Assembly: GCA_963796105.1 (NCBI GenBank)
Contig: CAWCKJ010000003.1
Location: 192,001 to 256,000, forward strand
From: a candidate division FCPU426 bacterium
Lineage (GTDB): Bacteria > Oederibacteriota > Muellerivitia > Muellerivitales > Muellerivitaceae
Reading direction: 5' to 3'
DNA: 64,000 bases
Shown: piece by piece, positions 17,687-54,780 of the stretch
Numbering within the stretch: the first letter of the stretch is position 1
How the letters are laid out: each line of letters opens with the position of its first letter
Position numbers and translations under genes: made by a program
The notes under the pieces: model-generated
Seen by the model: only the letters and a program-made list of their open reading frames with translations
Databases searched by the model: none
What the model was told of the DNA's origin: nothing

Positions 17687-18775
17687 TTATTGATTTTTCC
17701 GGATCAGCAAAAGCGGCCCACCGATCGCGAAAATAATATTCATGGTCCACATGGAGTAAAAAGGGGTCAAAAACCCCGAGTAGCCTAATTCCTCCCCGAT
17801 TTGCATACCGCCAAGGTAGAAAAAAGCCACCAAGATGCAAATCCCCAGGCTGAACATGACACCGCTGTATTTTCCCATGCCCCATCCCCAGGGAACCCCC
17901 AGAACCGCCAATATGACGCAACCAAATGGGAAAGCCAATTTTTTATGCAGAATCACCAATTCCTTGTGGCAATCGGACCCGTTTCGCCTGAGTTGCTGGA
18001 TGTAAGTGACCAATTCAGGGAGATTGAGTTCGCCTGCTTCTTTTTGTTCCTTTAAAAAATCCGAGGGCTTTTCCGGAAGATCAAAGGGCCTTCGGTCGAA
18101 GGACTCCGAGGTCACCTCAATATCCGCGTTATTAAAAGCGCGGTAATATCCGTCGTAAAAAACCCATCTTCCTTTCTCATATTTGGCGCTTTTGGCGTCA
18201 ATCCTGGATTTCAATTGAACACCGGATTGGAAATCCAAAACAAGGACATCCTTCATGGTTTGACCCAAACCGTCAAAAGAGCCGATGTGGTAAATTTGGT
18301 TGTTGGCGCCCCTTAATGAAATGTTTTGCCTGGAAGTGTCCAAGGATGCTTCAGGTTGTTTTTCGATTTCCACGACTTTAGCGTGGTGCATCATCCGGGT
18401 GGTTTTAGGAACAACCAGCTCATCGAAAGCGATGCTGATCAAACAGACGATTAATCCGCAGAAAAATAAAGGAACGGCCACCATGAAAATATGAACCCCG
18501 CCCGCCCGCATGGCCAAGAGCTCATTGGTTTTTGCCAGCCCCCCCAACGCGAAAAGCACGGCGAATAGGACCGCCAATGGAATAATCCGTATCAGAAGCT
18601 CTGGAATTTGAAGCGTGAAATATTTAACGGCTAAAAGAATACCCGGTTTATGATCCATAATCAGTTTCATGTCGTTGAAAACCTGGATAATGAGTATGAC
18701 CACCGAAAAAAACATCAAGGCCATGAAAAAAGGCTTTAAAAATTCCCTAAGGATGTAGCGAGTGATGATTTTCAA
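17687..18775 (-). CDS. lptG: LPS export ABC transporter permease LptG
   Basis: ITRYILREFL, NELLAMRAGG, periplasmic beta-jellyroll region, 3+3 TM segments; second gene of the pair. Confidence 0.88.
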   Translation of the reverse strand: MKIITRYILREFLKPFFMALMFFSVVILIIQVFNDMKLIMDHKPGILLAVKYFTLQIPELLIRIIPLAVLFAVLFALGGLAKTNELLAMRAGGVHIFMVAVPLFFCGLIVCLISIAFDELVVPKTTRMMHHAKVVEIEKQPEASLDTSRQNISLRGANNQIYHIGSFDGLGQTMKDVLVLDFQSGVQLKSRIDAKSAKYEKGRWVFYDGYYRAFNNADIEVTSESFDRRPFDLPEKPSDFLKEQKEAGELNLPELVTYIQQLRRNGSDCHKELVILHKKLAFPFGCVILAVLGVPWGWGMGKYSGVMFSLGICILVAFFYLGGMQIGEELGYSGFLTPFYSMWTMNIIFAIGGPLLLIRKNQ

Positions 18776-18851
18776 GAGGCGACCTTTTTAATCAAGATTT
18801 TCACGCCGGTTTTATCATTGGCGACGACAAATGCCCCTCGAAACATTGAGG

Positions 18852-20003
18852 TTAGCCAATTCCCGGAATCCGAATTCTGTTTAAATTCCAGCGAAATCTA
18901 AAAGCTGAATGTTCATTTATCACAAGGTAAAAGAGGAGAAAACCCGTCAGGACTATAAACCCATTAGCCCACCAAAGCCCAAAATAGGGGCTGACAGTTC
19001 CTCTTTGGCTTAAGGCTTCACCTAAAAAAAACATGAGATAATAAAGGAAAATCATGACAATTCCCAAAACGAAAGCGATAAAGCCCTTTGAACGAACCCA
19101 GAGCCCGAGAGGTGCGCAAAGCCAAGTGAGCGCCAGGCAGGCGAAGGGAAGCGACCATCTTTTTTGCAATTCAACTTGGACATAATTCCTCCGGGTCGCG
19201 TCGGTGGTACTGGCGATTTCCTGCACAAGCTCTTGAAAATTCATTTCCTCAAAGTCTTTTTTCACGTCAGCGATCCGGGCCAATTGATTTTCCAGCTTGA
19301 GCCGGATGACATATTCGTCGAAATAAAGGCGGTTATACGTGTTGTAATTGGTGTTATTCCACATCATAACCCCATTATGAAGCTGGAAAAAGAGCTGATA
19401 GTTTTTAGCATCGTTGACCAAGTTTCCAGTCTTAGCAATGGTAGTTTGAAGGGGATCCTTGGGGGTGAATCGGTTGAACATTTTCACGTTGGAAAAATTT
19501 CCGTCCGGGTCCTGCTGATCTATGAAAAATTGATAACCCTCGAAAAGATCGATGAAAACCCTTTCCCGGATCGCCACGTTGGCCCGGTTTTGTATGATTT
19601 TAAAGTGGATTTTCTTGAATGTGGTATTGGCCGCCGGAAGGATTTTATCATTGAAAAAGATCATCACTCCGGTCATGAGCAGGCCGAAAAGAAGAACAGG
19701 GCCGATCAAGCGGAATAAATGCACGCCGCTGCTTTTGAACGCCGTGACTTCCATGTCGGAACTCATACGGCCGAAATTCAAGAGAACGGCCATCATTAAT
19801 GACATCGGGACGGTCAAGGAAAGAACAAAGGGAATCAAACTAACGTAAAGAAGAAGAATATCGCCGAGAGGGACTTTTTTATTCACGAACAAGTCCAAAA
19901 GTAAAAAAACCTTATTCGTCATGAAAATGAAGGTCAGGATGAAAACGCTTAAGGCAAATGGGGGTAATGTTTCCTTTAAAACATAGCGGTAAACCGTTTT
20001 CAA
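18852..20003 (-). CDS. lptF: LPS export ABC transporter permease LptF
   Basis: YRYVLKETL, FGRMSSDMEVTAFKSSGV, ELQKRWSLPFAC. Confidence 0.88.
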   Translation of the reverse strand: MKTVYRYVLKETLPPFALSVFILTFIFMTNKVFLLLDLFVNKKVPLGDILLLYVSLIPFVLSLTVPMSLMMAVLLNFGRMSSDMEVTAFKSSGVHLFRLIGPVLLFGLLMTGVMIFFNDKILPAANTTFKKIHFKIIQNRANVAIRERVFIDLFEGYQFFIDQQDPDGNFSNVKMFNRFTPKDPLQTTIAKTGNLVNDAKNYQLFFQLHNGVMMWNNTNYNTYNRLYFDEYVIRLKLENQLARIADVKKDFEEMNFQELVQEIASTTDATRRNYVQVELQKRWSLPFACLALTWLCAPLGLWVRSKGFIAFVLGIVMIFLYYLMFFLGEALSQRGTVSPYFGLWWANGFIVLTGFLLFYLVINEHSAFRFRWNLNRIRIPGIG

Positions 20004-20288: not shown

Positions 20289-23200
20289 ATGGGGAATTTC
20301 CTGAATATTTTGGTAACGATTCTAAGCGAGATGGGTAAAACAATGTCCTTTTTCACTGAATCTCGCCATGTTTCCCTGACACCAGGGAATAAAATCATTG
20401 GTTTTGACCGAAAGGGAAAGCGAAAATATTTCAAAACAATAAACATTGAATATTTAGTCCCAATGTCACTTTTAATGGGTATTTCAATAATGCTTTTCAA
20501 CCCCAAGCCGGGTTGGAGCCAAGCGGCCACCAACCCGGTCCCGACCGTTTCAACGACTTCAAATGGAACTCCGGCGTCTTCGGCTTTAGCCCCGCTGACC
20601 CCTGATCAGGAAATTCAAATATTAGAAGCGATCGACGCGCAGTCAAACAGCACATCAGCTATTTCGGCCAGTTCCGAAAATCCATTACCCGCCGTTTCGT
20701 CCACTAAACCGCAACAGGCGCAACCCATCGGGGCTAAAACCCCTGAAATGAACGGGAATACCACCACACCCACCGCCGTGGTGACTGGGCCTCCCCCCAT
20801 TCCCACGGGATTAAATGACCTCATCCTGAAAGAAGGGGTCTATCTTTCCTGGAACTCGGCTCCGCCCGGGTCTCCCATCGTAGGTTACAACGTTTATAGG
20901 TCGAACCAGCCTGGGACCGGCTACCAGATGGTCAACTTGAAACCCCTCAACGTGGCATTTTTCCTTGATGGCCCTCCCAATAGCCTGAACCCTCCTAAAA
21001 ATGGCGAAACCTATTTTTACGTGGTCGCATCCATTGATGCCCAGGGAAACGTGAGCCCCTATTCGGAGGAAATATCGGCACAGCCCCAGGGAATGCAATA
21101 CGCGGCCGCCACGGAGGAAGCCACCCCGGTTCCAACACATCAAAAAGAAGAAGAAAAAACATTAAACATCCCTGAAAGCAAGCTTATCAACCTTCAATTG
21201 CCGGCGGACACACAGCTCTCCATCCAGGGCTATAAGAAAATAGAGGTCCAGCTTGGTTTTCAAACCTTTAACCGTCCCCAGACTATCAATGGACTTAGCA
21301 ACTCCCAAAACACACAGCTAGTCAACCAGGAGTTGGTGGTCAATCTTGATGGCAAGGTCGGGAAAAATGTGGATATACACGTGGACTACAGCGACGTCAA
21401 CCGCGCGGGAGGCGTGGATCAGAGCAAACAGGAAATCTCCATCGCCTACCATGGTGACGAAAATAGCCCGGTGCAAGAAGTTGATTTCGGTGATCTTCAG
21501 CTTCTGCTTCCCAACACTGAATTCGCTGGATTCAGCAAACAGCTTTTCGGCCTTCAGGCCAAGCTGAAGTTTGATAATTTCAAAATGACGACTTTTTTCG
21601 CCCAAACGAAGGGAATTTCCGAGACGAAGGTGTTTACCGGAAATTCTTCACAAGTCGATAAAACATATAACGATATCGATTACATAAGACAAAAATATTA
21701 TCTTCTGACTAAAAAACCTTATCCCAACGGCTCTACCACCATCAACGTTGCCGATTTACCAAAGCCAAATTCCGAACAAATTTGGGTTAATCCTAGCAAT
21801 GGTTCCACTGCATTTCCATCCGGCCCCAATTACATCGGCTATTTTCAACATTGGCTCCCGGGAAGGGACTATACGGTGGACTATACAACCGGAGTTATTA
21901 CATTTATCACGGGGCTGTCTAGTACAGCGCAGATTGCAATAGGTTATAACGATCAAACCGGTCAAAAATATGGATTAAACGATATCAACAATATCGCTAA
22001 TATCTTATCTCAACCGTCTTCCTTATTGATGAACCCCAATGGTCTCATTGACGATACCCATGTTCTAATAAAAAACAATGACAATACCAGCAGTCCCTTT
22101 TACATGGTGGATTATTATGATTTGGGCCACGACAAGATTATTCCGCCAAACCAAGACCCAAATTTCTTGTTGGAGATCATTGACCAAGGGACCAACAACG
22201 TCCTTCAAGAAATGTCAAATGGGCCTATCAGTTATTATGTCAATCAGGATTTAAATCTCTTATCTGTCTATAACGCTAACAACGATTCAGTCTCCTATAC
22301 AACAACATCGAATGGCACGGCAGTTACAGTCCAGGGAAATTTCGAGGAAAGGGCTTTTGTTGATTCATCCGATCCGGCCCTGGGAACCAGTATCAATGGG
22401 ATTTATAATGAAAACACGGTTCCTACCAGCTTAAAGCGTATTCATATTCGTTATAAAACCCAATTAAACTTTTATTCATTGAACCGGTTTAACATTATCA
22501 AGGGAAGCGAGGCGGTATATCTGGATGGCAGGCGATTGCGCCGGGATGTGGATTACACCATTGATTACACCTCGGGTTTTTTGGACTTTGTCGATAAAAG
22601 CATTTTACGGACTGACAGCCAGGTGGTGGTGACCTATGAGTACTCACCTTTTGGATCTTTCGCGCAGGAAAACATCTTGGGGGCAAGGGCTGAATACGAT
22701 CTCACGGACCATTTTTTTGTGGGATCAACATTTCTTTACAGCTCCACGCAAACTCCAATCGACCAGCCCCAGATTGGTTCAACTCCCAACTCTCTCACGC
22801 TCCTAGACGCTGACGCAAAATATGATTTAGGGTCGGAGGACGTTCAATCTCTAACTGGTCTAATTCCGGGTTTGGCTGATTGGAAACCCCCTGTCGCCGT
22901 GAAACTTTCCGGGGAAGTGGCTGAAAGCTTTTTCGACCCCAATAGCTACAATGCCGAAGGAGAAACGGGTGTGGCCATGCTTGACAGCATGGAGGGAATC
23001 GACAACGTGATCGGCCCGAACTTGAACGCCACCAATTGGATCGCTTCTTCTCCCCCTCTAGCAGTTCCGGCCTATTTGCCCATTACCGTTTGCGATGGAA
23101 GTTGTACTGTTTCTACTAATAACCGGATTCGTTTTATGAACCAAGACGATACCCAGTACTTACAAACTCTTCCCGCAACCGTTACAGGCATTAATGGGGC

Positions 23201-26200
23201 TGGTGGACATCTTTATCAACAGACGGGAAACGCGACCGATGAGGTATCGGTTTTAATGATTCCTTACGCGAACCTTAATAACCAAAAATGGGGTGGGATT
23301 CGGCAAATTCTCTCGACCTCAGGTGAAGACCTTTCTACTACCACCTTCCTTCAAGCCTGGATCTACAACGATAATCCCGCCAATGACAAATGGGTTATGG
23401 TTGATTTTGGGATAATGGATGAAGCTGTGGCTGGCCTGAGTTCGGGAGCTACAATTGAAAATGAATGGGTCTCCAACGGTGGAACGCCGGTTTGGGACGA
23501 TTATGGGATTCCAGCTTATTATTCAAATATTGTGGGAGCCCTAGGAGTCACATTACCGGCTATAGGAGGCCCGAATAGCTCTTCGAATTATATATCCAAT
23601 GAGAACAACACCTCCACTCAAGAGGGCGCTAGAAATCTGATAAATGATACTGAAGACGTCAATGCAAACGGCAATTTGGATGGAAATGACCAATATTTTG
23701 AGTATGGTATCCGCGCCAATTGGAGCGGCTGGAAATTGGTTAAAATTCCAGTGAATTTTTCCGCGGTGCCTGGCCAGAATACAACCGACGAGGGTGTCGA
23801 TTATTTTTACAACGTTGTTGGGGCAGCCAGTTCCGCTTTGATCCGGGAAATCAGGCTATGGGTGACGGGGGCAAGTCCCGCACCCATTTCGGGCTATTTC
23901 CTTGTGGATAGTATCGGTTTTACCCACAACTTATGGCAGGATCAGGTGGATCCCAATGCCAACTTGACCCAAGGCGTGACCGTCAACACTTCCAAATTTG
24001 ACGCAACTTCCATCAGCCAAATCCAGGATTCAGCTTACCAACCGACTCAGAGGTTTATAGTCCTACAGGAAGGCCAAAACCAGAATACGGTGCTGGAGAA
24101 CGAAAAATCCCTCCGGATCACCTATAACCTCTCAACGGCGGATATGTACGTCACCAACATTCCTGGACCTGTATCAGAAGTTTCAGAACCCGATTATTAT
24201 TGCACTCGTTCCTTTGGACAAGGTCTTGATCTGACCGACTACCAGAACCTGGCCTTTGACCTGAATGTGAGGACGGCGGTTGATCCGGGGGAAATTCTTT
24301 TTATCCGTTTGGCCAATGATCAACTTGATTATTACCAATACAACGTGCCCCTTGTTTCGGGAGGGGGATGGCAAACCATTTCCCTACTGATTGACGGTTC
24401 ACAAGGCAACCGCCAGACAGTGGGGACTCCATTTATTAACCGAACAGCCCAGATCTCAATCGGCATTATCTCGCCCAACCCTGTCCCGGGGGGTACCAAG
24501 GAACTTTGGATCGATAATTTACGGACGAACAATCCTAACCAAAGATCTGGCCTGGCCAGGAGAGCCAACGCCGCTGTGATCCTTGGCAATAATTTCGCGA
24601 CTTTGAACGGGCGTTATCGGGAAGTGGATTCCGGCTTTACCGAGATGGATCAAACCTCCACTCATTTCCAACATTCAAAGCAATTGGGGGCGGATTATTC
24701 CTCCAGCGGGATCAAGCTTTTCGGACAGCCCCTGGCAACCCAGGCTTCCTACACCGTCCAAGATCTTACAACCGAGCAGGATTTGCTTCAAAACCCCTAT
24801 TACAGTCCCTTGCCCAATACCCACACGGAAAATGCGACTGGGAGCATTAGCTACACCAAGGATCTTGGCACTTCCTACGGAAAAATAACAAACTTAAGAC
24901 TTTCAGGCAGTTCCAACTACGAAGATGACGAGTATCAACCAGCTTACTTGACCCAACCCGGAATACAGGGCGACACGACCAAAACCGATCAAACATATAC
25001 ATTGGCTTCCACCTATGACGCGCCGCTTAAGTTATTCAATCTTCCAATTGGTACCAATCAATTGAACGGCACTTATACGCTTACCCATGACACCCAGGAT
25101 TTCGGATTTAACACTTTCGCGCCTTATGACCGCACTACAAAAACCCAAACTTACGGATGGATCAACACAACTGAAATCCTCAAGAATCTCGTGTTTACTC
25201 CCGGTTATACATTTTCCGAAACTGACGCGAAAGGTAACACTAATTCACCAGGTATCGCGGGTGGAGTGGGTGATTACACGACATTCCAGGATAGGTACCA
25301 ACCGAAGGGTGGGCTTGTTTTCCGTGGGATTCCAGGCATGATTCCCTCGATCGATTATTCCGGGAGCAACCAATACGACTATGAATCCTTTCCTGATGGC
25401 CCACGTTTCAACAACGCGAACAATTTCAATAGTTCCCTGAACCTGACTCCTGGTTCCTGGCTGACGTTGTTTCAAAAAGCGAATCTCACGGTCTTTGCCG
25501 GATTGACGGAAAGCGCCACTTCCTCAGTGCCGGATTTCACCCTCATTCCACCGCTCACCTTCAGCCAAAAATGGCTCATTAATCCGCCTTTTGGAGTCGC
25601 CCTGAACGCCACAGAGTCAACCTCCAAACAGTTGAACATGAGCTTTAAAATTTTCGATTTTTGGGACGTTAAACCAACCGGTTCCTGGACGAATCAACTG
25701 AGCCTTTTATCCAAGGGATCCAATGCAGTTTCGCAGGAGGGAAGAACGATGGGGGGAACCACCGTTTATAATCATCCGATCCTTTCGTTACCCCTGATCA
25801 AATTCAACCTTACTTCCGCGCAATTCCAGTTCACTCACACCGACAATACTCAATACGACAGCAGTGGTTCCGGGATACCCGCCAACCAAACTTATAGCGA
25901 TCTCTATTCTGTTACGCTGCCTTACGAAATTAACAAAAAAGCCCAAGGCAACTTTCATTACCAACTCACAAAGGGTTTTCAAAATGTCAGCGATTTAATA
26001 ACCAATCAGTACGACTCCCTGTTTTCGCTGGAATATGACCAGAAATTTCTGGAGAATCAATATCTCCACATACCCTTTACCAATTGGAAGATCAAATTTA
26101 CCCAGGCCTTGGAATTTCGAGCAACTTTCACCCGCGAATGGGTCGATAACGAGTCTTTATATGTCACGAATGTACTCAAAACCGAGCGCTATCGGGGACA

Positions 26201-26342
26201 GATCGATCTTAATTACAATGCTTTGAAGAATTTGCGTGTCGGTCTTACCTTGGCTTATGAAAATTTTAACAATATCGAGCCAAACCCCAATCTGGGCTAC
26301 AATTTAATCCAAGTAAATCTTTCAGCCGAGGCGAGATTTTGA
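20289..26342 (+). CDS. sprA: SprA/Sov-like type IX secretion outer-membrane translocon with an N-terminal Fn3 domain (true start may be ATG 20343 or 20463)
   Basis: NQELVVNLDGKVGKNVDIHVDY, ISIAYHG..VQEVDFGDLQL, LFGLQAKLKF, SEAVYLDGRRLRRDVDYTIDYTSG, TEDVNANGNLD; amphipathic beta-strand C-terminal half ending in F. Confidence 0.78.
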   Translation: MGNFLNILVTILSEMGKTMSFFTESRHVSLTPGNKIIGFDRKGKRKYFKTINIEYLVPMSLLMGISIMLFNPKPGWSQAATNPVPTVSTTSNGTPASSALAPLTPDQEIQILEAIDAQSNSTSAISASSENPLPAVSSTKPQQAQPIGAKTPEMNGNTTTPTAVVTGPPPIPTGLNDLILKEGVYLSWNSAPPGSPIVGYNVYRSNQPGTGYQMVNLKPLNVAFFLDGPPNSLNPPKNGETYFYVVASIDAQGNVSPYSEEISAQPQGMQYAAATEEATPVPTHQKEEEKTLNIPESKLINLQLPADTQLSIQGYKKIEVQLGFQTFNRPQTINGLSNSQNTQLVNQELVVNLDGKVGKNVDIHVDYSDVNRAGGVDQSKQEISIAYHGDENSPVQEVDFGDLQLLLPNTEFAGFSKQLFGLQAKLKFDNFKMTTFFAQTKGISETKVFTGNSSQVDKTYNDIDYIRQKYYLLTKKPYPNGSTTINVADLPKPNSEQIWVNPSNGSTAFPSGPNYIGYFQHWLPGRDYTVDYTTGVITFITGLSSTAQIAIGYNDQTGQKYGLNDINNIANILSQPSSLLMNPNGLIDDTHVLIKNNDNTSSPFYMVDYYDLGHDKIIPPNQDPNFLLEIIDQGTNNVLQEMSNGPISYYVNQDLNLLSVYNANNDSVSYTTTSNGTAVTVQGNFEERAFVDSSDPALGTSINGIYNENTVPTSLKRIHIRYKTQLNFYSLNRFNIIKGSEAVYLDGRRLRRDVDYTIDYTSGFLDFVDKSILRTDSQVVVTYEYSPFGSFAQENILGARAEYDLTDHFFVGSTFLYSSTQTPIDQPQIGSTPNSLTLLDADAKYDLGSEDVQSLTGLIPGLADWKPPVAVKLSGEVAESFFDPNSYNAEGETGVAMLDSMEGIDNVIGPNLNATNWIASSPPLAVPAYLPITVCDGSCTVSTNNRIRFMNQDDTQYLQTLPATVTGINGAGGHLYQQTGNATDEVSVLMIPYANLNNQKWGGIRQILSTSGEDLSTTTFLQAWIYNDNPANDKWVMVDFGIMDEAVAGLSSGATIENEWVSNGGTPVWDDYGIPAYYSNIVGALGVTLPAIGGPNSSSNYISNENNTSTQEGARNLINDTEDVNANGNLDGNDQYFEYGIRANWSGWKLVKIPVNFSAVPGQNTTDEGVDYFYNVVGAASSALIREIRLWVTGASPAPISGYFLVDSIGFTHNLWQDQVDPNANLTQGVTVNTSKFDATSISQIQDSAYQPTQRFIVLQEGQNQNTVLENEKSLRITYNLSTADMYVTNIPGPVSEVSEPDYYCTRSFGQGLDLTDYQNLAFDLNVRTAVDPGEILFIRLANDQLDYYQYNVPLVSGGGWQTISLLIDGSQGNRQTVGTPFINRTAQISIGIISPNPVPGGTKELWIDNLRTNNPNQRSGLARRANAAVILGNNFATLNGRYREVDSGFTEMDQTSTHFQHSKQLGADYSSSGIKLFGQPLATQASYTVQDLTTEQDLLQNPYYSPLPNTHTENATGSISYTKDLGTSYGKITNLRLSGSSNYEDDEYQPAYLTQPGIQGDTTKTDQTYTLASTYDAPLKLFNLPIGTNQLNGTYTLTHDTQDFGFNTFAPYDRTTKTQTYGWINTTEILKNLVFTPGYTFSETDAKGNTNSPGIAGGVGDYTTFQDRYQPKGGLVFRGIPGMIPSIDYSGSNQYDYESFPDGPRFNNANNFNSSLNLTPGSWLTLFQKANLTVFAGLTESATSSVPDFTLIPPLTFSQKWLINPPFGVALNATESTSKQLNMSFKIFDFWDVKPTGSWTNQLSLLSKGSNAVSQEGRTMGGTTVYNHPILSLPLIKFNLTSAQFQFTHTDNTQYDSSGSGIPANQTYSDLYSVTLPYEINKKAQGNFHYQLTKGFQNVSDLITNQYDSLFSLEYDQKFLENQYLHIPFTNWKIKFTQALEFRATFTREWVDNESLYVTNVLKTERYRGQIDLNYNALKNLRVGLTLAYENFNNIEPNPNLGYNLIQVNLSAEARF

Positions 26343-26355
26343 AAATGGATATTTT

Positions 26356-29300
26356 ATGAAAACGCTGATAAATCCAAAACTCGGAATTTTCTTTTGCGCA
26401 ATGAACTTTTATTATTATTTGTGTGCCGCCTTTTTTATTTTGGGTTCCTTACGCGGAAGTTTATACGCGCAACTTCCACCTCCTGGGGGTTTAACAGGTA
26501 ATGTGGCTAATGGGGCCGTTACATTGCAATGGTTACCCATTCCGAGTGCATCACCTACTGCCTATTTTATTTACCGGTCATTGGTTGAAAATACAGCTAC
26601 TATGACTGACACTCCGCCTTCTACCCCAAGTTCCCCGGAGTCGCCCATTGATACCTTTACCATCACCCCGACCCCGTCACCAATTACTTCTGTATTGGCG
26701 GGAACGTCAAGTTACATCGATTATCAAGTTACAAATGGACGCACTTATCTTTATCAAGTAAATGCGATAGATATCTCCGGGTTAGGTTTTCCCGCTTCGG
26801 TTTTAGTAATACCTTACGGTCCTGCGGAAGCAATCACGCAATTAACCATTCAAAATAACCAACATTCCGGCGCGTTGGATTTGTACTGGGGTATTCCTTC
26901 GTCGACATATCCTGTTTCCATTTACCAAATATTTAGATATGACGTAACGACTACACCGATATTCACTCCCACTCTCACGAACACACCGTCAAATACCCCC
27001 ATGGCCATTATGCCGCCCCCTCAGCTCACCCCATGGAATACCCCCACAAATTCTTACACCCCAACGAAAACGTCTACATTTACAGTCACTGACACCCCAA
27101 CATATACTCCGACTGGGACTAGGTCGCCGACCAGCACCCCCACCAATCTTTTTCCCGCTTCCGCCGTTTTGACTTTAAATCCCAATCCGATCGCAATTAC
27201 TTCCGACAATACTTATTCCGATATACCGGTTCCATCTTCGGAAAATTATTTTTATGTGGTTCAGGCGGTGGACTCCCAGGGAAATCCCGGCCTTTTGCCA
27301 ACCTATGCGGCTGGCCCTGCAGGCGTCAAATACAACCTACCACCAGACCCTCCCGTTTTAATGGGATTTGTTCCGGTTACCCCGACTCCAACTTATGGGG
27401 TACAACTTTATTGGAACGGGCCATTGGCTTCCGAAGGAGTGACTGTTTATACTTTAATTTCAAACGAAACACCAATCGCCACATTTACAACACCCTCGCC
27501 AACCATGGGCTATCTTGATTTTAAGATTACCGAATCAAACAATTCAGGCAATCCTACGACCTATCAAGTTGTGGCATCCAGCGCAGTTACTTCAAGCAAT
27601 TCTAATCCCATACAATTAAGTATTAGTAAATCTTCTTTATCCGGCCAACCAACGGTTATTCCAGTCGTCACAGCAAATGCCGTCAGTTTATCCTGGTCTG
27701 ACGGCGTAACAGGCACCTATGGTTTAGCTGGTTATTGGATATTCAAGGCTTTAAATGGATATCCGGGTACGACTGGGTTATCGCCCACTCCGACACCCAT
27801 CGCAACTGTTCTTGAAACTGCTACTCCGAACCTGGTTTATTCTTGGGTGGACGCACCGACACCCGTTAATCATATGGGTTATTGGGTACAACCTTTTGAT
27901 AATGCTCTCACGGGCGGAATTATTGGTACCCCGACTATCCTCAATTTGGCACCCACCCCTGTTTCAACTGTAAGCGCTGTAAACGTCGTGGGAGGGAATA
28001 ATCAAGTGAATGTGAGTTGGTCCGGAAATGCCGGTCCTGGTTTTTTTGGAACGCCTGCAAATTACGTAATATACAGATTCTATTCAACTCCTACTCAAAC
28101 CCCAACTCTCACGAGTATCGCTACGGTGGGATATACACAAAATAACTTTAACGACTTCATTCTTGTTGTTACCGCTAATCCACAAGTGGAATACCAAGTG
28201 GGTGTAGTAGATGCCTTTGGAAACACTTCGGATTTGACGGCAATCTCGAACCCTGTGACTACTTCCAATCTTGGCCTGCCATTACAACCAACCGTTTTGC
28301 CCTTGGCCGGGGCCACCAATTCTTTACTTTACTCCTGGATTCAAAACCCTCAGTCGGACCAGGTTGATAGTTATTATTTGTTTGGGCAGGATTGGCCCAC
28401 TCTGACTGCTACTACTACCCCTACCCCAGTGGTAAATTTAGTCCCATCCCCAACTATGTCCTATTCAAACCCCGGGAGTTCCTGGAGTTCATCGATTTTT
28501 TATCTTTTAGCTCATAATTCCGTGGGTTACAGCAAACCAGCGACCTTGTCCGGCATTCCAGTGCCTCCTTACCAAGTAACTGCGATACCCACTTCTAGCC
28601 AGCAAGTACTGGTTACATGGAACTTAATACCTACACCAAACGCCAAAACAGCTGTGGATGGATTTAATATTTACCGTTCCAACATTTCAGGCGCTGAATT
28701 TGTTTCGATAGGGAATGCCTCTCCTGCTCAAACCAATTTCATTGACCCAAATGCCCAACCTGGAAAAAATTATTTTTACCGGGTCACCGCAAAGGGCCAT
28801 GATGTGATTGGGGATGAATTATCCGAAAGCCCGCTTTATCCCACACCAGTCGCGGAAGCGGGTTTTTACAGCTGGCCCAGCACGCCGATGGGTTTGAGCG
28901 CCCAAGGGGGGATCAACCAGACAACCCTTTACTGGTCATACAATCCCACGGACGAATTCGTGACGGATTATTTAATATATAAGAACGGTAACCTGACGCC
29001 TGTTTTAACGGTCATGGCAACTTTATCACCCACCAACACCCTTGCGCCAGCCTCTCCGTCCCCCACTGCCACGATTACCCCGACACCTAATTTAACCCCG
29101 CTCCAGACGCAAACCGCGACCATTACTCCAAGCCCGACTCCAACCGGATATTACGTCACCCTACCAGACAATGCGGCCCAGGAATCTTCTTATCAAATAG
29201 TCGCTCAAAATATTCAGGGATTCAGCACTCCGTCAAACACAGTCTCTATTTTATGCGATCCAATCATCAATCCAACCGCGGGGTTAACCCCTCCGCAAGG

Positions 29301-31212
29301 ATTTACGCCAACCCCAAAAGCCACACCTGCTTATCCACCTGTAGTTTGGATTTCCGGAATTACATATCCAGGGGTCGTCACTGGTTATGTAATTTATAGG
29401 TCTAGCGATCCCAGTTTCCCTTCCAACAATACTCCAATTACAAATGTCACGGGTCCGGTGTCATTTATTCCTGATAATGGGGCAGTCTCGGGTTATACAA
29501 ATTACTATGAACTTTTAGCTAATGACACCAATCATATAAGCGTCAATCCGTTGCCAGGAACGGCCCCTGTGGTTTCCGTTGATGTTTGGCCAAACGTCCC
29601 CTCAAGCATGGCCTGCCAGCCAGCCAGCACATCAATAAACCTATCCTGGGCTGCCCCTATAGGAAACCTCGTTATTACGGGATATGAAATCCACCGCAGT
29701 ACCTGTCCAACCTGCCCCCAGACATTGTTGGCCACTGGCGTTTCCAAACCTACTTATCAGGACAACTTGGCGACGCCCCGCGTTCCATATTTTTATGAAG
29801 TCGATTCAGTGGCCTCAAACGGTCTTACGAGCGCTCAAAGCTCCGCTTCGGGTCTCGCTGTGTCTCCCGTATCATTGCAAAACACCCCATATGCCGCATC
29901 CAACAACCTGAATTGGTCGCCGGTTTCCGTTGCCACGCCTAGCAATATCACCGGATATGTTGTCTATCGAATGACTTTGCAAAATCCCGCCACCCAAATA
30001 CCCGTTTCTTTCACTTCTATATCGCCACTTTTGGAAGGAATCAATAATACGGTTTATGCTGATATTAATGTTACAGAAGCCACAACTTATGCTTATGAGG
30101 TGGCGCCGGCCGCATTGAATCCTGCCGGAGGCTATATTTTGGGTCCCTTCTCAAATGCCGTGACTCAATCGGTCTTTCCACAACCAGTGGCGGATTTGGA
30201 AGCCGCTTCAGGGGATGGAATTGTTCAATTGCGGTGGGATTACCAGGGAACAGCGGATAACGCCTTTACTTACACCATCATGCGGAAGCTTGGGGCCGCG
30301 CCGGATATCGACTATCAGGTTCTCAAATCTGGTTTTTCTGGGATCAATTACACTGACTCCCCTGTTCAAAACAAAACATTTTACGATTACGAAGTTATAG
30401 CCGCGGACGCGAATGGGCAGGCCTCAACAGCGCAATACGTAACCGCGTTACCGGCCAAACCGCCAATCGTCACTGATACCGCCGTTAGTTTGAGCCAAAG
30501 CCAAGGAGGAACAATCCAGGGAAACACCTTGATATGGTCTGCGGCTAATATGATGGTGACTGTCATAAATAATGGGGTGACTAGCGTCACTAGCAATGTC
30601 GAAAATTTTGACCCGGCTAACATGTATCCATTAGGGGGTTATTTGCTGTCTCGTTCCACCGACGGGGGTGGAATTTATACTTATACCCATATTATTTCCG
30701 CGCCGACACCCTCCAGCGGGGCAACAATAGGGCCGGCGGCAGTCACTTATTTTGACCCGGTCCAATTGGTTCAGGGAAACACGAATACTTATTTAATCCA
30801 AGCGTTCGACGCACCTCCTGATTTACCGCTTCCACTGGCGCAGGCTGTCACCCAAAGTTGGGTGCACCTTTCAAATTATAATTTGGTTACAGCGTATCCA
30901 CTGAACGCCGGAGCGGCTTTGGACCTAAACGCCATTCGTCCATTCGGCACCGCTACCAAAGTACACATTCGGTTTGTGGTCACGACACCCGGAAATGTGA
31001 ATATCAAGGTGTATGCCCTGAACGGTACTTTCATCAAGGAGTTGGTCAACCGATGGTTTACCAGCGGTGTTTATGGAACGCCTGATAGTCCTTATCCCTT
31101 GATTTGGGACGCTCGTAATATGAACGGGACTTTAGTGGCTTCCGGGGTTTATCTGATTACGGTTGAGGTTAACGGCCACCAGGAAATAGACAAGATCGCC
31201 GTCATCAAATAA
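26356..31212 (+). CDS. Large secreted Fn3-repeat, Thr/Pro-rich protein with FlgD-Ig/T9SS-type C-terminal domain
   Basis: About a dozen W...Y.IYRS...Y.V.A Fn3-like units; C-terminus VNIKVYALNGTFIKEL...WDARNMNGTLVASGVYLITV...KIAVIK. Confidence 0.82.
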   Translation: MKTLINPKLGIFFCAMNFYYYLCAAFFILGSLRGSLYAQLPPPGGLTGNVANGAVTLQWLPIPSASPTAYFIYRSLVENTATMTDTPPSTPSSPESPIDTFTITPTPSPITSVLAGTSSYIDYQVTNGRTYLYQVNAIDISGLGFPASVLVIPYGPAEAITQLTIQNNQHSGALDLYWGIPSSTYPVSIYQIFRYDVTTTPIFTPTLTNTPSNTPMAIMPPPQLTPWNTPTNSYTPTKTSTFTVTDTPTYTPTGTRSPTSTPTNLFPASAVLTLNPNPIAITSDNTYSDIPVPSSENYFYVVQAVDSQGNPGLLPTYAAGPAGVKYNLPPDPPVLMGFVPVTPTPTYGVQLYWNGPLASEGVTVYTLISNETPIATFTTPSPTMGYLDFKITESNNSGNPTTYQVVASSAVTSSNSNPIQLSISKSSLSGQPTVIPVVTANAVSLSWSDGVTGTYGLAGYWIFKALNGYPGTTGLSPTPTPIATVLETATPNLVYSWVDAPTPVNHMGYWVQPFDNALTGGIIGTPTILNLAPTPVSTVSAVNVVGGNNQVNVSWSGNAGPGFFGTPANYVIYRFYSTPTQTPTLTSIATVGYTQNNFNDFILVVTANPQVEYQVGVVDAFGNTSDLTAISNPVTTSNLGLPLQPTVLPLAGATNSLLYSWIQNPQSDQVDSYYLFGQDWPTLTATTTPTPVVNLVPSPTMSYSNPGSSWSSSIFYLLAHNSVGYSKPATLSGIPVPPYQVTAIPTSSQQVLVTWNLIPTPNAKTAVDGFNIYRSNISGAEFVSIGNASPAQTNFIDPNAQPGKNYFYRVTAKGHDVIGDELSESPLYPTPVAEAGFYSWPSTPMGLSAQGGINQTTLYWSYNPTDEFVTDYLIYKNGNLTPVLTVMATLSPTNTLAPASPSPTATITPTPNLTPLQTQTATITPSPTPTGYYVTLPDNAAQESSYQIVAQNIQGFSTPSNTVSILCDPIINPTAGLTPPQGFTPTPKATPAYPPVVWISGITYPGVVTGYVIYRSSDPSFPSNNTPITNVTGPVSFIPDNGAVSGYTNYYELLANDTNHISVNPLPGTAPVVSVDVWPNVPSSMACQPASTSINLSWAAPIGNLVITGYEIHRSTCPTCPQTLLATGVSKPTYQDNLATPRVPYFYEVDSVASNGLTSAQSSASGLAVSPVSLQNTPYAASNNLNWSPVSVATPSNITGYVVYRMTLQNPATQIPVSFTSISPLLEGINNTVYADINVTEATTYAYEVAPAALNPAGGYILGPFSNAVTQSVFPQPVADLEAASGDGIVQLRWDYQGTADNAFTYTIMRKLGAAPDIDYQVLKSGFSGINYTDSPVQNKTFYDYEVIAADANGQASTAQYVTALPAKPPIVTDTAVSLSQSQGGTIQGNTLIWSAANMMVTVINNGVTSVTSNVENFDPANMYPLGGYLLSRSTDGGGIYTYTHIISAPTPSSGATIGPAAVTYFDPVQLVQGNTNTYLIQAFDAPPDLPLPLAQAVTQSWVHLSNYNLVTAYPLNAGAALDLNAIRPFGTATKVHIRFVVTTPGNVNIKVYALNGTFIKELVNRWFTSGVYGTPDSPYPLIWDARNMNGTLVASGVYLITVEVNGHQEIDKIAVIK

Positions 31213-31224
31213 TAAAATATCCAT

Positions 31225-31992
31225 TTGGTTAAGTTTGATGGGCTCATCATGATTTTCAACCCAAGAAATCTTATCCGTGATTATTTGACCGACTTCATCT
31301 TTCCGAAAGTCTGTCAAAATTGCGGAAATTATTTCAAGGAAGGATTGTCCAATATTCTTTGCCGATCTTGTTTCGATTCCATTCTCCCCTACGAAGATCC
31401 CGTTTGCAATCATTGCGGTGTTTCTCTGCCCATAAGAGGATTTGAGTCCGCCGTCAATATCAGATGCCGTGATTGCGGCGAAGGGAATTATCATTTGGAT
31501 TTTGTCCGTTCCTTGGGTGCTTATGAGGGCCCCATTCGAATCATCCACCACGCCTTCAAGTTTGAGGGGATGGAAAGACTTAAAACGCCGGTCGCTGATA
31601 AAATAGTTAAACATGTGCCTCATTTTTTTTGGAATAACGTGGAGGCCTTAGTGCCAGTTCCTCTTAGCTCCGAAAAGGAAAGGGAAAGAGGATATAATCC
31701 CTCTGATTTGCTGTCAGAAGAAATTTCGCGTAGAATCGGCATACCCGTAATAAAGATCTTGCGAAAAGTTAAACCCACGCCTCCCCAAATGTCGTTAGAA
31801 AGAACTGAACGTTTGAAAAACCCCCGGAACGCTTTCGCTATTGATAATTCAATGATGATGCCAAAGAAAATTATAATGATTGACGATGTTTATACGACAG
31901 GATCGACTTTGGAGGAATGCGCTCGAATTTTAAAAATGTCCGCTGATATTTGGGTTGGCGCTCTTGTTTTCGGGCGCACTCCCCGTCGTTGA
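31225..31992 (+). CDS. comF: ComF family protein (double zinc ribbon plus PRTase-like domain)
   Basis: Four CxxC pairs, VPVPLS..RERGYNPS, IDDVYTTGSTLEEC. Confidence 0.9.
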   Translation: MVKFDGLIMIFNPRNLIRDYLTDFIFPKVCQNCGNYFKEGLSNILCRSCFDSILPYEDPVCNHCGVSLPIRGFESAVNIRCRDCGEGNYHLDFVRSLGAYEGPIRIIHHAFKFEGMERLKTPVADKIVKHVPHFFWNNVEALVPVPLSSEKERERGYNPSDLLSEEISRRIGIPVIKILRKVKPTPPQMSLERTERLKNPRNAFAIDNSMMMPKKIIMIDDVYTTGSTLEECARILKMSADIWVGALVFGRTPRR

Positions 31993-50707: not shown

Positions 50708-51169
50708 ATCCTATTCCTTTAAAAATCGTTAAATCCCAAAATTCGATAACAAGTAATCGGCAAACCGGAAATGCCTTCTAGCCGACCATAAAAAGGTTTT
50801 AATGGCAATAGAGAATTGAGGTAATTGCGACCACTTAAAAGGCAATGTATTCATTAAAATATTTTTCCACGAGGGAATAAACATCTTCCAACTCCATCTA
50901 TAAGGTTAGTAGGGAACAAGGGAATGGGAAGAGCATGGCTAAAGTCGTGATTTGCCGTATTTTTTCAATTAAGTTGTTATGTCCCTGGAACCGCTTTCGA
51001 TGTTTTTAGACTAAAAACTGATGATTTGATATGATTTTACAAGGAAAAATCTTGAGTTTTATGGTATTTTAAGCAAGTTTTACGGGGAAATATTCCCGGG
51101 ATTAAAAGACCCTTTATCGGTATATTACTTAAATGGCCTTTTAAAAAATTCTTTTTGGGGGACGGACCC

Positions 51170-52894
51170 ATGAATTCATTGCGCAATTTTGTGTTGGGAA
51201 TCGCATTAATTGTTGTTGGAGGAACCATTTTCTTTTTCGGGTGTTCCCGAAATATCACTCAGCCTCCCCTCACATCACCCAGTATTACGAATACACCTAC
51301 AAATAGCCCAACACCGACTTACACCAAGACCTACACAAATACAATTACACCAACTATTACATATACACCTAATGGCCCCACGAACACACCAACCATTTCT
51401 CCAACACAAACATACACTTTAACTCCAACCGATACCATTGCTCCAACAAATACTCTGTCCCCAACACCTACCCCGCCTCCCGATCCATTGCTAATCGATG
51501 ATATGGCTGATGGCGATAATCAAGTGGTTCAAGTATCAGGAAGAAGCGGCTATTGGTCTACAACTGCTGATCCGTATGGCTCTACAGTTTCGCCTTCTAC
51601 TTCTGGCGCAAATACGTTTGTTATGTCCGCATCCACTGATAATCTTTACGCTAATTCTAACTATTGCGCTCGAATGACTGGTACAACGGCTCCCTTCAGT
51701 ACCGCGAATTATCCTTATGTGGCAATGGAAGCTAATTTCGTACCTTCTGGCTCCTATAACATCAGCGCAAATGCACCGGCGGGACCAGCTATTACTGGTG
51801 TTCAGTTTGATATGAAAGCCATTATTACTGGTGATCCCAATCATGACGTTATTACGGGAATTAATAATGTGTGCTTTTCACCCGCTGTTCGCTTCATGAT
51901 TGCCGATGGAACAACAACCACGTCATCGGACGCTAATGGAGTAAACCTAACTCCTGCGAACGCTAATTGGAACACTTATACTGTCTATTTCAATCAGATG
52001 ATGACCACTGATATTGCCGTGACCGATGTCCTCCAAACCCATGTATTGGATCAGACAACCGCAATGCAAGTTCAATGGGAAGTGACATTCCCCGCAGCGA
52101 ATTATGATATCTCCGTCGGAAATATCAGATTCATTACGTCAAATCCTCCACCGGCGGCTGTTCCACCTTCTTGGCCCGCGGCCTTGATTGATAACTGCGA
52201 GCAAAATACGAATTTTGCTTTGATCAACAGCGGCCGTGGTGGAGTCTGGTTCAATATGGCTGATAATTCGGGGAATTGTCCTACCAACTCATCCGCTTAT
52301 CAAGATACAATTTGCCCAATTAATGGTGGATTGCCCATGATTATGAGCCCTGGTGGTTCTCCGGCCAGCCCTGGTTATTGCGCGCGTATTACTGGGACCG
52401 GAATGCATAATGCGAGTCCCTATCCTTTCCCAGGAATGGGCGTCCATTTTATGCCAGCAATACCAGATACCTCTGCTGGTTGCCCGCCTGGAGTAGGTTT
52501 TGACCAGCCATACAATATTCAAACGTCACCTGGCGGTTCCTATACTGGTTTCCAGTTTTACGCTAAGGTTGGAGCCGGTAGCCAAACATCTGTGCAGGTG
52601 ATGGGAGCCGATGCCACGACTGATCCTAACTTACAAACCCCTCAGTGCGGTACTAACACTCCTGGATTATGTGACGCTACAGATTGGTGCAATGCCAATC
52701 ACGTCAAAACAATAACGGTAACGACCAGTTGGGTAATCTACCAAGTTCCATTCGCTCAATTAGTTAATCCGAGTTGGTGCACGCATAATTCCCACAATGG
52801 AGGAGCATTTGATCCTACCGAGTCAATAGGTATCCAATGGCAATTGGCGACAGGGAACTACGACTTCTCTGTGGATGATGTCAGCTTCTATTGA
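51170..52894 (+). CDS. Lipoprotein with Thr/Pro linker and two CBM11/CIA30-like jelly-roll domains (paralog 1)
   Basis: Lipobox FFGC, TPT linker, internally duplicated LID..G.W..YCAR.TG..YNI..TG.QF..K..YD.SV..F units; Cys-rich. Confidence 0.75.
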
Positions 52895-52917
52895 TATTTA
52901 ATTTAACTTTTGTTTTT

Positions 52918-52950
52918 AAAAAAAGCTCGGCTGAATAGTCGGGCTTTTTT
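52918..52950 (+). terminator. Rho-independent terminator
   Basis: AAAAGCTCGGCT / AGTCGGGCTTTT stem with T tail. Confidence 0.75.
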
Positions 52951-53166
52951 ATTTTCAGGCTTAAATCCATTTAACGTTAACCCAATAGGTTCATAAATTT
53001 ATTTAATTGCCGTCAATGACGAATATTTGAATGTAACGATGCGTGTTTTTATTATTTATTTCAAAAGATACGCTTAAAATCTTTTTATTTTGATGTATAA
53101 TTTTTTTATCTTTAAAACACCTTTTATTGAACTGAAAGGTGAAAATTTAACCTCTCGGGGGATGTC

Positions 53167-54780
53167 ATGGGTTCATTGCGAAGCTGGCTAGTCGGAATCG
53201 TATTTGCTTTTTCGGCCATTTCAATAGTCATGTTCGGTTGTTCCCGACAGCTAGCGACCCCGGTGGGAGCTCCCAAACCCACACCTCTCCCCACTCGAAC
53301 CGGAACGCCAACTAATACGGGAACCCCGACTAAAACCCCAACCATCACCAACACTCCAACTCCAACCATAACACCCACTCCACCACCAACCCTTGTGGCG
53401 ACACCTGCAAATACTCTTGTCATTTCCGATATGGAGTGTGATTGCCCCTCCCTCTACACGCAAAACGGGATCAATGGTTTCTTTTTCACGACTACAGACC
53501 TAATTGGGACTTCGATTTCTCCAGTGGTGGGATCTTATTTTCTGCCCTCGAACCCAGGATACAATTCAAATTATTGCGCCAGGATAACTGGAACCGTTTC
53601 AATGCCCACGACCGCCATCACCCCGGGAGCTACTGCTTGTACCATCATTTCTTATCCATTCGCGAGCCTTGAGGCCAATTTTGTGACAAACGGGACTTAC
53701 AATATCTCATCAAGTATTTCCGGGGCAACTGGGATACGGTTTGACCTGAAGGCGGCCATTACCGGGTCATGCATTCCTCCGCCAATTCGTTTCATGATTA
53801 CCGACTCCGTCACCAGCGTTACTCAAGACGCCAATGGTTATATGATCATCCCTTCCACAGGTTGGACAGGGTCTTGGAACCCAGTCACCGTATATTTTGA
53901 CCAAATGATGACGGAGGGCCGGGTCACTCCCATGAGCCACGCGCTGGACCTGACGACCGCCACCCAGATGCAATGGCAAATAACTTATCCCGGCGCAGGT
54001 TATGACATATCCGTGGACAACGTCAGTTTCGTAACATCCGCAGATCCAAATCCAGCGTCAGTTCCCCCAAGTTTTCCAGCTTCATTGATTGATAATTGCC
54101 AATTAGGCATCAATTTCTGCCCCAATATAATGGGGCCCAATGATTCCAGAAGCAGGGGAGGGCCTTGGTTCGTTTACGCCAATAATCCCGCCAATAGCTC
54201 GAACGGAAGCGATATTATCTGCCCCGCTAATGGTGGATTTCCGTTCCTTATGAGTCCTGTAAACGATCTTCCTGGAGCGACTTATGCGGCACGGATGACG
54301 GGTATTATGGGGGCGAACGGATACCCTGGTATGGGTGTCCATTTCCTTCCGGCGGATTCATGTGGTTATGACCAACCCTACAATATTCAGGCCTCCCAGA
54401 CCAGCGGCCCTTATACAGGAATCCAGTTTTACGCCAAGGTTGGTTCAGACGGCCAAGACAGTACGGTGCAAGTTGTGATACCAGACTCGACAACAGATCC
54501 AAACATTCGAAACCCCATTTGCAATAGTTCATATTGTAATGGAAACAAATCAGACCTCGTTGATTTGGCAGCTTCTTTCAATCCCTGGGGTGAATTCTAT
54601 GACACTTGGATGTTGATACAATGCCCATTTACGAGTTTTACTCCGCCTAGTTGGGCCAATTCAAATCCAGTGAAGACACTTCAGACTAATGAGGCTATCG
54701 GAGTACAATTTCAGGTTAACTCCAACAGCACTGCTAATGGCTATTTTGATATTTGGATCGATACACTTAGTTTCTATTAA
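53167..54780 (+). CDS. Lipoprotein with Thr/Pro linker and two CBM11/CIA30-like domains (paralog 2)
   Basis: Lipobox MFGC; shared blocks with paralog 1 (SNYCAR.TG, EANFV, PGMGVHF.PA, DQPYNIQ, QFYAKVG, DSTTDPN). Confidence 0.75.
   Translation: MGSLRSWLVGIVFAFSAISIVMFGCSRQLATPVGAPKPTPLPTRTGTPTNTGTPTKTPTITNTPTPTITPTPPPTLVATPANTLVISDMECDCPSLYTQNGINGFFFTTTDLIGTSISPVVGSYFLPSNPGYNSNYCARITGTVSMPTTAITPGATACTIISYPFASLEANFVTNGTYNISSSISGATGIRFDLKAAITGSCIPPPIRFMITDSVTSVTQDANGYMIIPSTGWTGSWNPVTVYFDQMMTEGRVTPMSHALDLTTATQMQWQITYPGAGYDISVDNVSFVTSADPNPASVPPSFPASLIDNCQLGINFCPNIMGPNDSRSRGGPWFVYANNPANSSNGSDIICPANGGFPFLMSPVNDLPGATYAARMTGIMGANGYPGMGVHFLPADSCGYDQPYNIQASQTSGPYTGIQFYAKVGSDGQDSTVQVVIPDSTTDPNIRNPICNSSYCNGNKSDLVDLAASFNPWGEFYDTWMLIQCPFTSFTPPSWANSNPVKTLQTNEAIGVQFQVNSNSTANGYFDIWIDTLSFY

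Follow-up and report, generated by a model that had tools for sequence, protein, structure and literature searches.

The 64,000-nucleotide stretch that we analyzed as a window (positions 192,001 to 256,000 of contig CAWCKJ010000003.1, assembly GCA_963796105.1, from a candidate division FCPU426 bacterium) carries at 20289..26342, on the forward strand, a gene resembling sprA, which encodes the outer membrane translocon of the T9SS (type IX secretion system). Its product has 2,017 amino acids counted from the first ATG (the true start is probably a later Met), about 1,940 of them in the mature form, and ends in Phe. Reading along the same strand, a probable Sec signal peptide (20421..20519, residues ~45 to 77, basic and then hydrophobic, with cleavage near GWSQ), called by eye and by comparison with the N termini of relatives, is followed by an unconserved linker rich in Thr, Ala, Ser, and Pro (20520..20789, residues 78 to 167), an Fn3 domain predicted to be periplasmic (20790..21092, residues ~168 to 268), a short linker, and an SprA-like body. 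The body comprises predicted barrel strands 1 to 7 (21198..21638, residues 304 to 450), which align with Flavobacterium johnsoniae SprA from residue 132 to 143 on; predicted cap domains with strands 8 to 11 (residues 791 to 885) between them (21639..24548); and predicted barrel strands 12 to 36 (24549..26339, residues 1421 to 2017, including the final Phe). The original prediction, which rested on the letters of the window, had described SprA-type motifs and a C-terminal Phe preceded by a Ser/Thr/Pro linker and a full Fn3 domain; linker, domain, and Phe are all present in the translation, as are the five Fn3 motifs that it listed (residues ~172 to 260), and it is the order that required correction, to signal peptide, linker, Fn3, and barrel. 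Within the taxonomic order, identity was highest in strands 1 to 7 (75%), intermediate in the C-terminal barrel (57%) and caps (46 to 50%), and lowest in residues 1 to 167 (14%). A search of the bacterium's own genome indicated a single copy.

The protein is a true relative of SprA, homologous over its whole length, as had been claimed. It exceeded the TIGR04189 cut-off as an entire protein (207.6 bits against 200; E = 2e-61), its individual pieces each falling below, and a profile constructed from 37 relatives retrieved F. johnsoniae SprA (6h3i) at E = 4.5e-50, spanning SprA residues 143 to 1578, and also matched Fn3 domains in the PDB. Pfam returned nothing for the protein, the SprA_N model giving no match; single-sequence phmmer found no match in the PDB, and a scan of contigs with the protein as lone query recovered no relatives. 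Named close relatives are labeled hypothetical by NCBI, which has already applied the SprA name in some phyla other than Bacteroidota. AlphaFold2 was used to model residues 168 to 1000 and 1000 to 2017 as two halves, with mean predicted local distance difference test (pLDDT) scores of 76.6 and 86.2; SprA structures occupied ranks 1 to 4 in Foldseek for each half (E = 6e-29 and 2e-24), and VIA-align mapped the halves onto SprA residues 132 to 848 and 986 to 2401 at a root mean square deviation (rmsd) of 15 to 25 Å, with 12 to 19% identity. The strand count that had been proposed as a check, made by hand, gave 11 and 25 long strands in the two half-models, a sum of 36, and 36 is the number described for the F. 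johnsoniae barrel (PMC10994853).

The translocon had also been described as compact. Against Bacteroidota this is an understatement, as the body from residue 304 onward has 1,714 amino acids compared with ~2,260 in the corresponding part of Flavobacterium SprA, some 550 fewer; as a peculiarity of this bacterium it does not stand, since the size is common to several phyla. SprA from relatives titled Elusimicrobiota is about 1,700 to 1,920 amino acids long, and the NCBI-named SprA proteins of Zixibacteria and Gemmatimonadota have 2,008 to 2,129; a short SprA is nothing unusual beyond the Bacteroidota.

The host genome (4.98 Mb, 96.8% complete) was examined together with 99 genomes of its phylum, 60 of them of good quality. 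In a FastTree phylogeny of SprA (93 sequences, 517 columns, rooted on the Bacteroidota type, inner nodes weak), the sequences of the phylum cluster with records of "Candidatus Goldiibacteriota," "Candidatus Firestonebacteria," and candidate division FCPU426, far from Bacteroidota. An Elusimicrobiota-type clade is sister to this assemblage, with joint support of 0.93. One record titled Ignavibacteria (L094) has an SprA of Elusimicrobiota type by this tree and 29 PorV-family matches; its title is probably wrong. Among 61 sampled relatives, sprA was found in 58 (59 had any match, one of them to Fn3 only) and in all 40 genomes of good quality, and the three without a real match have genomes just 63 to 66% complete.

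Components that accompany SprA in Bacteroidota were sought at two scales. The window contains no porK, porL, porM, porN, or porV among its 44 scanned proteins, in agreement with the original prediction, and the whole-genome search that it had recommended recovered PorV-family and C-terminal domain (CTD) proteins, considered below, without PorU, GldL, GldM, or GldN and with only weak matches to GldK. Profile models for GldL, GldM, and GldN gave no match in the host genome and none over the cut-off in the 99 phylum genomes, and GldN was likewise not found in 121 genomes of the phylum to which L094 belongs (as G099); because no genome with a known T9SS served as a control for these models, we describe the motor as not found rather than absent. 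The PorU model returned only CTD matches in the host; the peptidase C25 sortase domain was not found there or in 30 family genomes, using a model that matched 8 of the 99 phylum genomes; PorP/SprF was over the cut-off in none of the 99, with weak matches in 31; and the Plug and PorZ propeller models found nothing in the host genome. It could be argued that a canonical T9SS is present with a GldKLMN-type motor diverged past profile detection, given that SprA itself is barely over its cut-off and was missed by its Pfam model, that the searches for a motor ran without a positive control, and that four genes of the FGE-sulfatase fold match GldK weakly. We regard this as improbable: the three motor and ring models were over the cut-off in 0 of 99 genomes, nor did searches turn up PorU, PorP, PorZ, or Plug, and the four GldK-like genes, as candidates for a GldK ring, were discarded on account of their score (63 against 350 bits), their scattered positions, and their lack of gldLMN-like neighbors.

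It had further been suggested that the pathway is divergent and possibly minimal. The first term is apt, with a divergent SprA outside Bacteroidota and no detectable GldKLMN or PorU; the second is not, for a pathway that has 18 genes of the PorV family and some 120 CTD proteins is far from minimal on its carrier and cargo side. The cargo model TIGR04183 has 48 matches in the host genome, 47 over the cut-off, and a local CTD profile, iterated from a seed at the C terminus of the Fn3-repeat protein encoded beside sprA, collected 122 proteins, equivalent to 9% of the genome, a few of which are likely to be false. A hydrophobic N-terminal stretch is present in 93 of these, 69 have at least 1,000 residues, 66 carry long Thr-X repeats, and 84 have Lys at position -6. 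The 18 carriers, all encoded outside the window, belong to the PorV/PorQ family (16 over its cut-off; one also passes the Pfam PorV cut-off, E = 3e-9), and 13 have long C-terminal tails, in which Pfam recognizes fn3 in four, OmpA in three, and tetratricopeptide repeats (TPR) in four, the FlgD-Ig/OmpA type included. Ten of the 18 lie directly after a CTD gene, as do 16 of 4,087 other genes, and when 30 carrier loci of relatives from the phylum were inspected, 26 showed the same order of cargo and then carrier (one of them with a separation of 470 nucleotides). PorV-family barrels occur in all 99 phylum genomes, and the family is expanded in five genomes of Elusimicrobiota type, with 5 to 44 matches.

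Pairing was examined further in a complex model of one carrier barrel (G000:C4:570439, G000 being the host genome) with the CTD of the protein encoded at C4:572469. The pair scored 0.92 and the best of three controls 0.00, on a scale whose mark 116 of 157 solved pairs and 2 of 215 mismatched pairs had attained; runs shared at least 98% of contacts, and the partner pLDDT was at least 89. The model may pass through its likeness to solved PorV-CTD complexes (8gl8). In it, the conserved near-terminal Lys of the CTD contacts a carrier loop, and in F. johnsoniae, Lys1110 of RemZ is described as contacting PorV (PMC10994853). One PorV serves all type A cargo of F. johnsoniae, where downstream cognate shuttles are described for type B only (PMC12618676), and the pairing of cargo with its own carrier is therefore a different arrangement.

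Several other loci bear on carriers and cargo. Two pairs of PorV-family genes lie inside or at the end of a flagellar cluster of the host genome (G000:C3:401381-404943 and 423845-427589), one of them with a CTD gene. Anti-sigma-like proteins with a single transmembrane segment and a FlgD-Ig/CTD-like end are encoded ahead of cargo-carrier pairs (G000:C12:82702-83751, C12:92905-93555, and C4:1230132-1230788), one behind a gene resembling those for extracytoplasmic function (ECF) sigma factors, and such proteins could sense CTD traffic. A 128-residue protein (G000:C12:90566-90952) consists of a signal peptide and a CTD alone and is coupled to a PorV-TPR gene. Seven TMEM260-like O-mannosyltransferase genes, one in the window (57214-59136) and six at other loci, are candidates for glycosylation of the Thr-X stalks of cargo. 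At 51155-54780, the window also encodes a pair of lipoprotein-like paralogs that bear Thr-Pro stalks and, by eye, repeated carbohydrate-binding-like domains, with no confident Pfam match.

The Fn3 domain of the translocon is well defined. Its model (pLDDT, 92 to 98) is a seven-strand beta-sandwich that superimposes on solved Fn3 domains with Z-scores of 13.3 to 13.5 and rmsd values of 2.1 to 2.4 Å over 89 to 95 residues, and the Atlas links the region to fn3 clusters at 0.96; Pfam fn3 does not match this copy, yet it matches three relatives. Within the order, the domain and the C-terminal barrel show equal conservation (57% for each), and a family-specific inserted loop has been retained across the phylum. 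Among 75 full-length relatives, all 18 sequences from the order have one copy; 25 further SprA proteins from the phylum or grouping with it have three copies (18 proteins), one (1 protein), or none (6 proteins), so that one to three copies are found in 37 of 43 full-length sequences of the lineage and in none of 32 of Elusimicrobiota type, 38 of the 75 being without Fn3. The fusion was thus seen on the FCPU426/Goldiibacteriota side only among the relatives examined. The domain precedes strand 1, and alignment with F. johnsoniae SprA begins no earlier than residues 132 to 143; the N terminus of the latter is described as periplasmic, enclosed by SkpA and touching SprE (PMC10994853). From this position we infer a periplasmic location. 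The SkpA-binding segment has no counterpart here, its place being taken by the linker and Fn3, and the domain is likely to be a periplasmic docking handle that replaces that segment; whether it docks a partner specific to the lineage, as we predict, we put at even odds. The suggestion that Fn3 recruits cargo or partners is accordingly divided: a partner is plausible, and the case for cargo is poor on three counts. The domain is missing from 38 of 75 full-length relatives, the complex model seats a CTD on a PorV-family barrel with no Fn3 included, and in F. johnsoniae neither SprE nor SkpA is required for the loading of substrate (PMC10994853).

A less specific role must also be weighed, in which Fn3 is a cell wall tether or passive spacer that was shuffled in from the neighboring Fn3-repeat gene and has no particular partner. 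The nearest in-genome relatives of the domain are indeed the Fn3 repeats of cargo and of carrier tails, and its copy number varies among 0, 1, and 3. The slot itself accepts other modules: LysM, a peptidoglycan-binding module, occupies it in 2 of 22 other SprA proteins scanned (P0050 and P0206), which is in keeping with tethering. Against this stand the 57% identity of Fn3 compared with 14% in the flanking N terminus, the inserted loop kept throughout the phylum, and the failure to detect a peptidoglycan-binding motif in the domain, and we judge a tether or spacer unlikely. The N-terminal slot of SprA is modular in a further protein, P0202, which has a 650-residue extension with a weak outer membrane protein barrel match.

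The neighboring genes offer candidates for the predicted partner. Beginning 13 nucleotides past sprA on the same strand, a gene at 26356..31212 encodes a protein of 1,618 residues that is rich in Thr and Pro, contains Fn3 repeats, and closes with a type A-like CTD whose Lys lies six residues from the C terminus; no carrier gene adjoins it. A gene of this kind directly follows sprA at 32 of 36 informative Fn3-bearing loci and at none of 37 Fn3-less loci, two loci that ended too early having been excluded. Next on the forward strand is a comF-family gene (31225..31992), separated from sprA here by the inserted Fn3-repeat gene and directly following sprA in 24 of the 37 loci with Fn3-less SprA; divergent from sprA on the reverse strand is lptF-lptG (17687..20003), which stands beside sprA in several relatives too. 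The comF linkage might suggest that the barrel has been repurposed away from protein export, for instance to DNA uptake. We find this very improbable: the linkage extends to gapA, pgk, and lptFG, which gives the synteny the look of a housekeeping arrangement, and the ~120 CTD proteins, most with a hydrophobic N terminus (93 of 122), the paired carriers, and the confident CTD-carrier model all speak for export.

A second candidate is a TPR protein of ~640 residues, found in 75 of the 99 phylum genomes and lying 3 to 21 kb from sprA in nine genomes of five families. It went undetected in families whose SprA carries no Fn3 (f12, 0/5; f4, 0/6; f14, 0/1) and also in G031, G038, and G060, all with an Fn3-bearing SprA and the latter two 89 to 90% complete. 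Its matches were generic TPR ones, with no SprE among them, in searches that included no SprE model. In the host genome this TPR protein is encoded at G000:C3:566238-568163, within a five-gene unit (G000:C3:563359-571105; L139), together with a PorV-FlgD-Ig-OmpA fusion, a TPR and beta-propeller lipoprotein present in 27 of 30 family genomes, an unannotated 511-residue barrel-like protein, and a PorV-family barrel; we take the fusion and the lipoprotein to resemble the PorE architecture, split between carrier and lipoprotein. Immediately or one gene upstream of sprA in five relatives (L053, L054, L059, L060, and L061) is a conserved gene for a single-transmembrane protein of ~220 residues with no Pfam match, which was dropped as a motor candidate when no match was found in the host genome.

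The TPR protein is also the hinge of another proposal, that the same pore, carriers, and cargo are served by a borrowed ExbB-ExbD-TonB motor, acting via a TPR scaffold docked on Fn3. Export in F. johnsoniae is described as requiring energy (PMC10994853), the host genome has five MotA/ExbB genes, one flagellar and the others in four ExbB-ExbD-TonB sets, and the TPR protein is widespread, occurs near sprA, and went undetected in families whose SprA has no Fn3. None of the sets adjoins sprA or a carrier gene, however: three have TonB-dependent receptors for neighbors, and next to the fourth is a barrel-like protein without annotation. The TPR protein, for its part, is generic in its matches and went undetected in G031, G038, and G060, whose SprA bears Fn3; we therefore consider a borrowed motor unlikely. 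Like the four ExbBD-TonB sets, the flagellar MotAB has no link to sprA or carriers, which counts against it as a T9SS motor. The barrel-like protein next to the fourth set (G000:C3:122629-127047; L262) has 611 residues and no Pfam match.

We propose, with a probability of roughly 0.6, that an SprA-family pore exports folded CTD-tagged proteins via PorV-family carriers, likely without GldKLMN and with a periplasmic Fn3 handle. Cargo would cross the inner membrane by Sec and enter the SprA barrel from the periplasm, CTD first, as in F. johnsoniae (PMC10994853); its CTD would bind loops on the carrier whose gene comes next after its own, as modeled, and it would exit the barrel sideways on that carrier, again by analogy with F. 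johnsoniae (PMC10994853). As no sortase was found, cargo would retain its CTD and probably stay on the carrier, which in many cases would be anchored through its own Fn3, TPR, or OmpA tail, much as type B cargo remains on SprF/PorP. Release may be a one-way hand-off to a dedicated, nonrecycled carrier that calls for no rotary motor; we advance this tentatively, at somewhat less than even odds, and favor it over a borrowed TonB motor or an unrecognized one. The first candidate for the Fn3 partner would be the adjoining Fn3-repeat CTD protein and the second the conserved ~640-residue TPR protein. Judged from sequence and structural prediction, the system appears to be a motor-less type IX variant, the Fn3 partner being a candidate only. 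A bolder version strikes us as unlikely. In it, a whole phylum outside the FCB group would operate a type IX pore without motor or sortase, each type A-like cargo would leave and remain on a PorV-family carrier of its own, and the Fn3 arm and the coinherited Fn3-repeat CTD protein encoded beside sprA would jointly form a gate in place of SkpA, SprE, and Plug; such a system would be simpler and possibly ancestral, a motor having been added later in Bacteroidota.

A number of observations weigh against the proposal. The barrel was modeled in halves only, with predicted template modeling (pTM) scores of 0.57 and 0.50, and in VIA-align unrelated barrels equaled or surpassed SprA as matches to the C-terminal half (Z = 16.7 for the MtrB-containing 6r2q against 14.5 for SprA, at an rmsd of ~15 Å), which is expected of half a barrel. 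The PorV-family models also match the control Bacteroides thetaiotaomicron, which is not known to have a T9SS, and a cargo gene directly upstream is lacking for 8 of the 18 carriers. The CTD of the Fn3-repeat neighbor is outside the TIGR04183 matches and is detected by the local profile only; 4 of 36 Fn3-bearing loci are without that neighbor, and the coinheritance of the two may reflect one gain with later losses, amounting to one or two events, because the loci compared are kin. A very divergent motor may lie beyond the reach of the models. Passive release in particular is disfavored by data from F. johnsoniae, in which cargo is described as trapped on the translocon without GldL and as needing SprE and SkpA for its release (PMC10994853).

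Current models confine T9SS to the FCB superphylum (PMC8754138 and PMC11205867) and make the GldLM motor necessary for extracting cargo from SprA (PMC10994853). A phylum with SprA, many carriers, ~9% of a genome devoted to CTD proteins, and no detectable motor makes that requirement directly testable, as either the pore releases cargo unaided or another energy source exists. The system may also explain how these uncultured bacteria export their large surface proteins with Thr stalks and their proteins active on glycans, and the Fn3 arm gives a definite starting point in the search for the periplasmic partner that is missing. McBride and Zhu are said to have noted in 2013 partial gene sets in some lineages. 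In a literature search that left most subscription journals and supplements outside its scope, we encountered no description of a T9SS for FCPU426, Goldiibacteriota, Firestonebacteria, or Elusimicrobiota, nor of an Fn3-fused SprA; the available text of PMC7031533, on cellulolytic Goldbacteria, names no T9SS, and term searches in the accessible parts of PMC7323717, PMC4804311, and PMC5445135 gave no matches.

In comparison with known systems, the SprA proteins of Zixibacteria, Gemmatimonadota, and Elusimicrobiota are short too (1,650 to 2,130 amino acids), and those of Elusimicrobiota type differ from the present protein in having Fn3 in 0 of 32. With SprA/Sov (TIGR04189; F. johnsoniae PDB 6h3i, 6h3j, 8gl6, and 8gl8; PMC10994853), the protein shares collinearity over SprA residues ~132 to 2401, 36 counted strands, caps, a C-terminal Phe, and a single copy; it departs from them in a core smaller by ~550 amino acids, in a linker and Fn3 where the SkpA-binding N terminus would be, and in a setting in which GldKLMN, PorU, PorZ, PorP, and Plug were not found. 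The carriers and cargo resemble PorV and its type A CTD (TIGR04183 and NF033709) in carrier family, in CTD fold family, and, in the model, in placing a near-terminal Lys on a carrier loop, whereas the single PorV of F. johnsoniae is represented here by 18 PorV-family genes, 13 of them long-tailed and 10 directly after a cargo gene. The gene order of cargo and then its own shuttle, together with likely permanent display and wall tethering, recalls type B cargo with its PorP/SprF shuttles and PorE anchoring (PMC12618676); the difference is that PorV-family barrels and type A-like CTDs appear to fill these roles here, with the tethering domains fused to the carrier.

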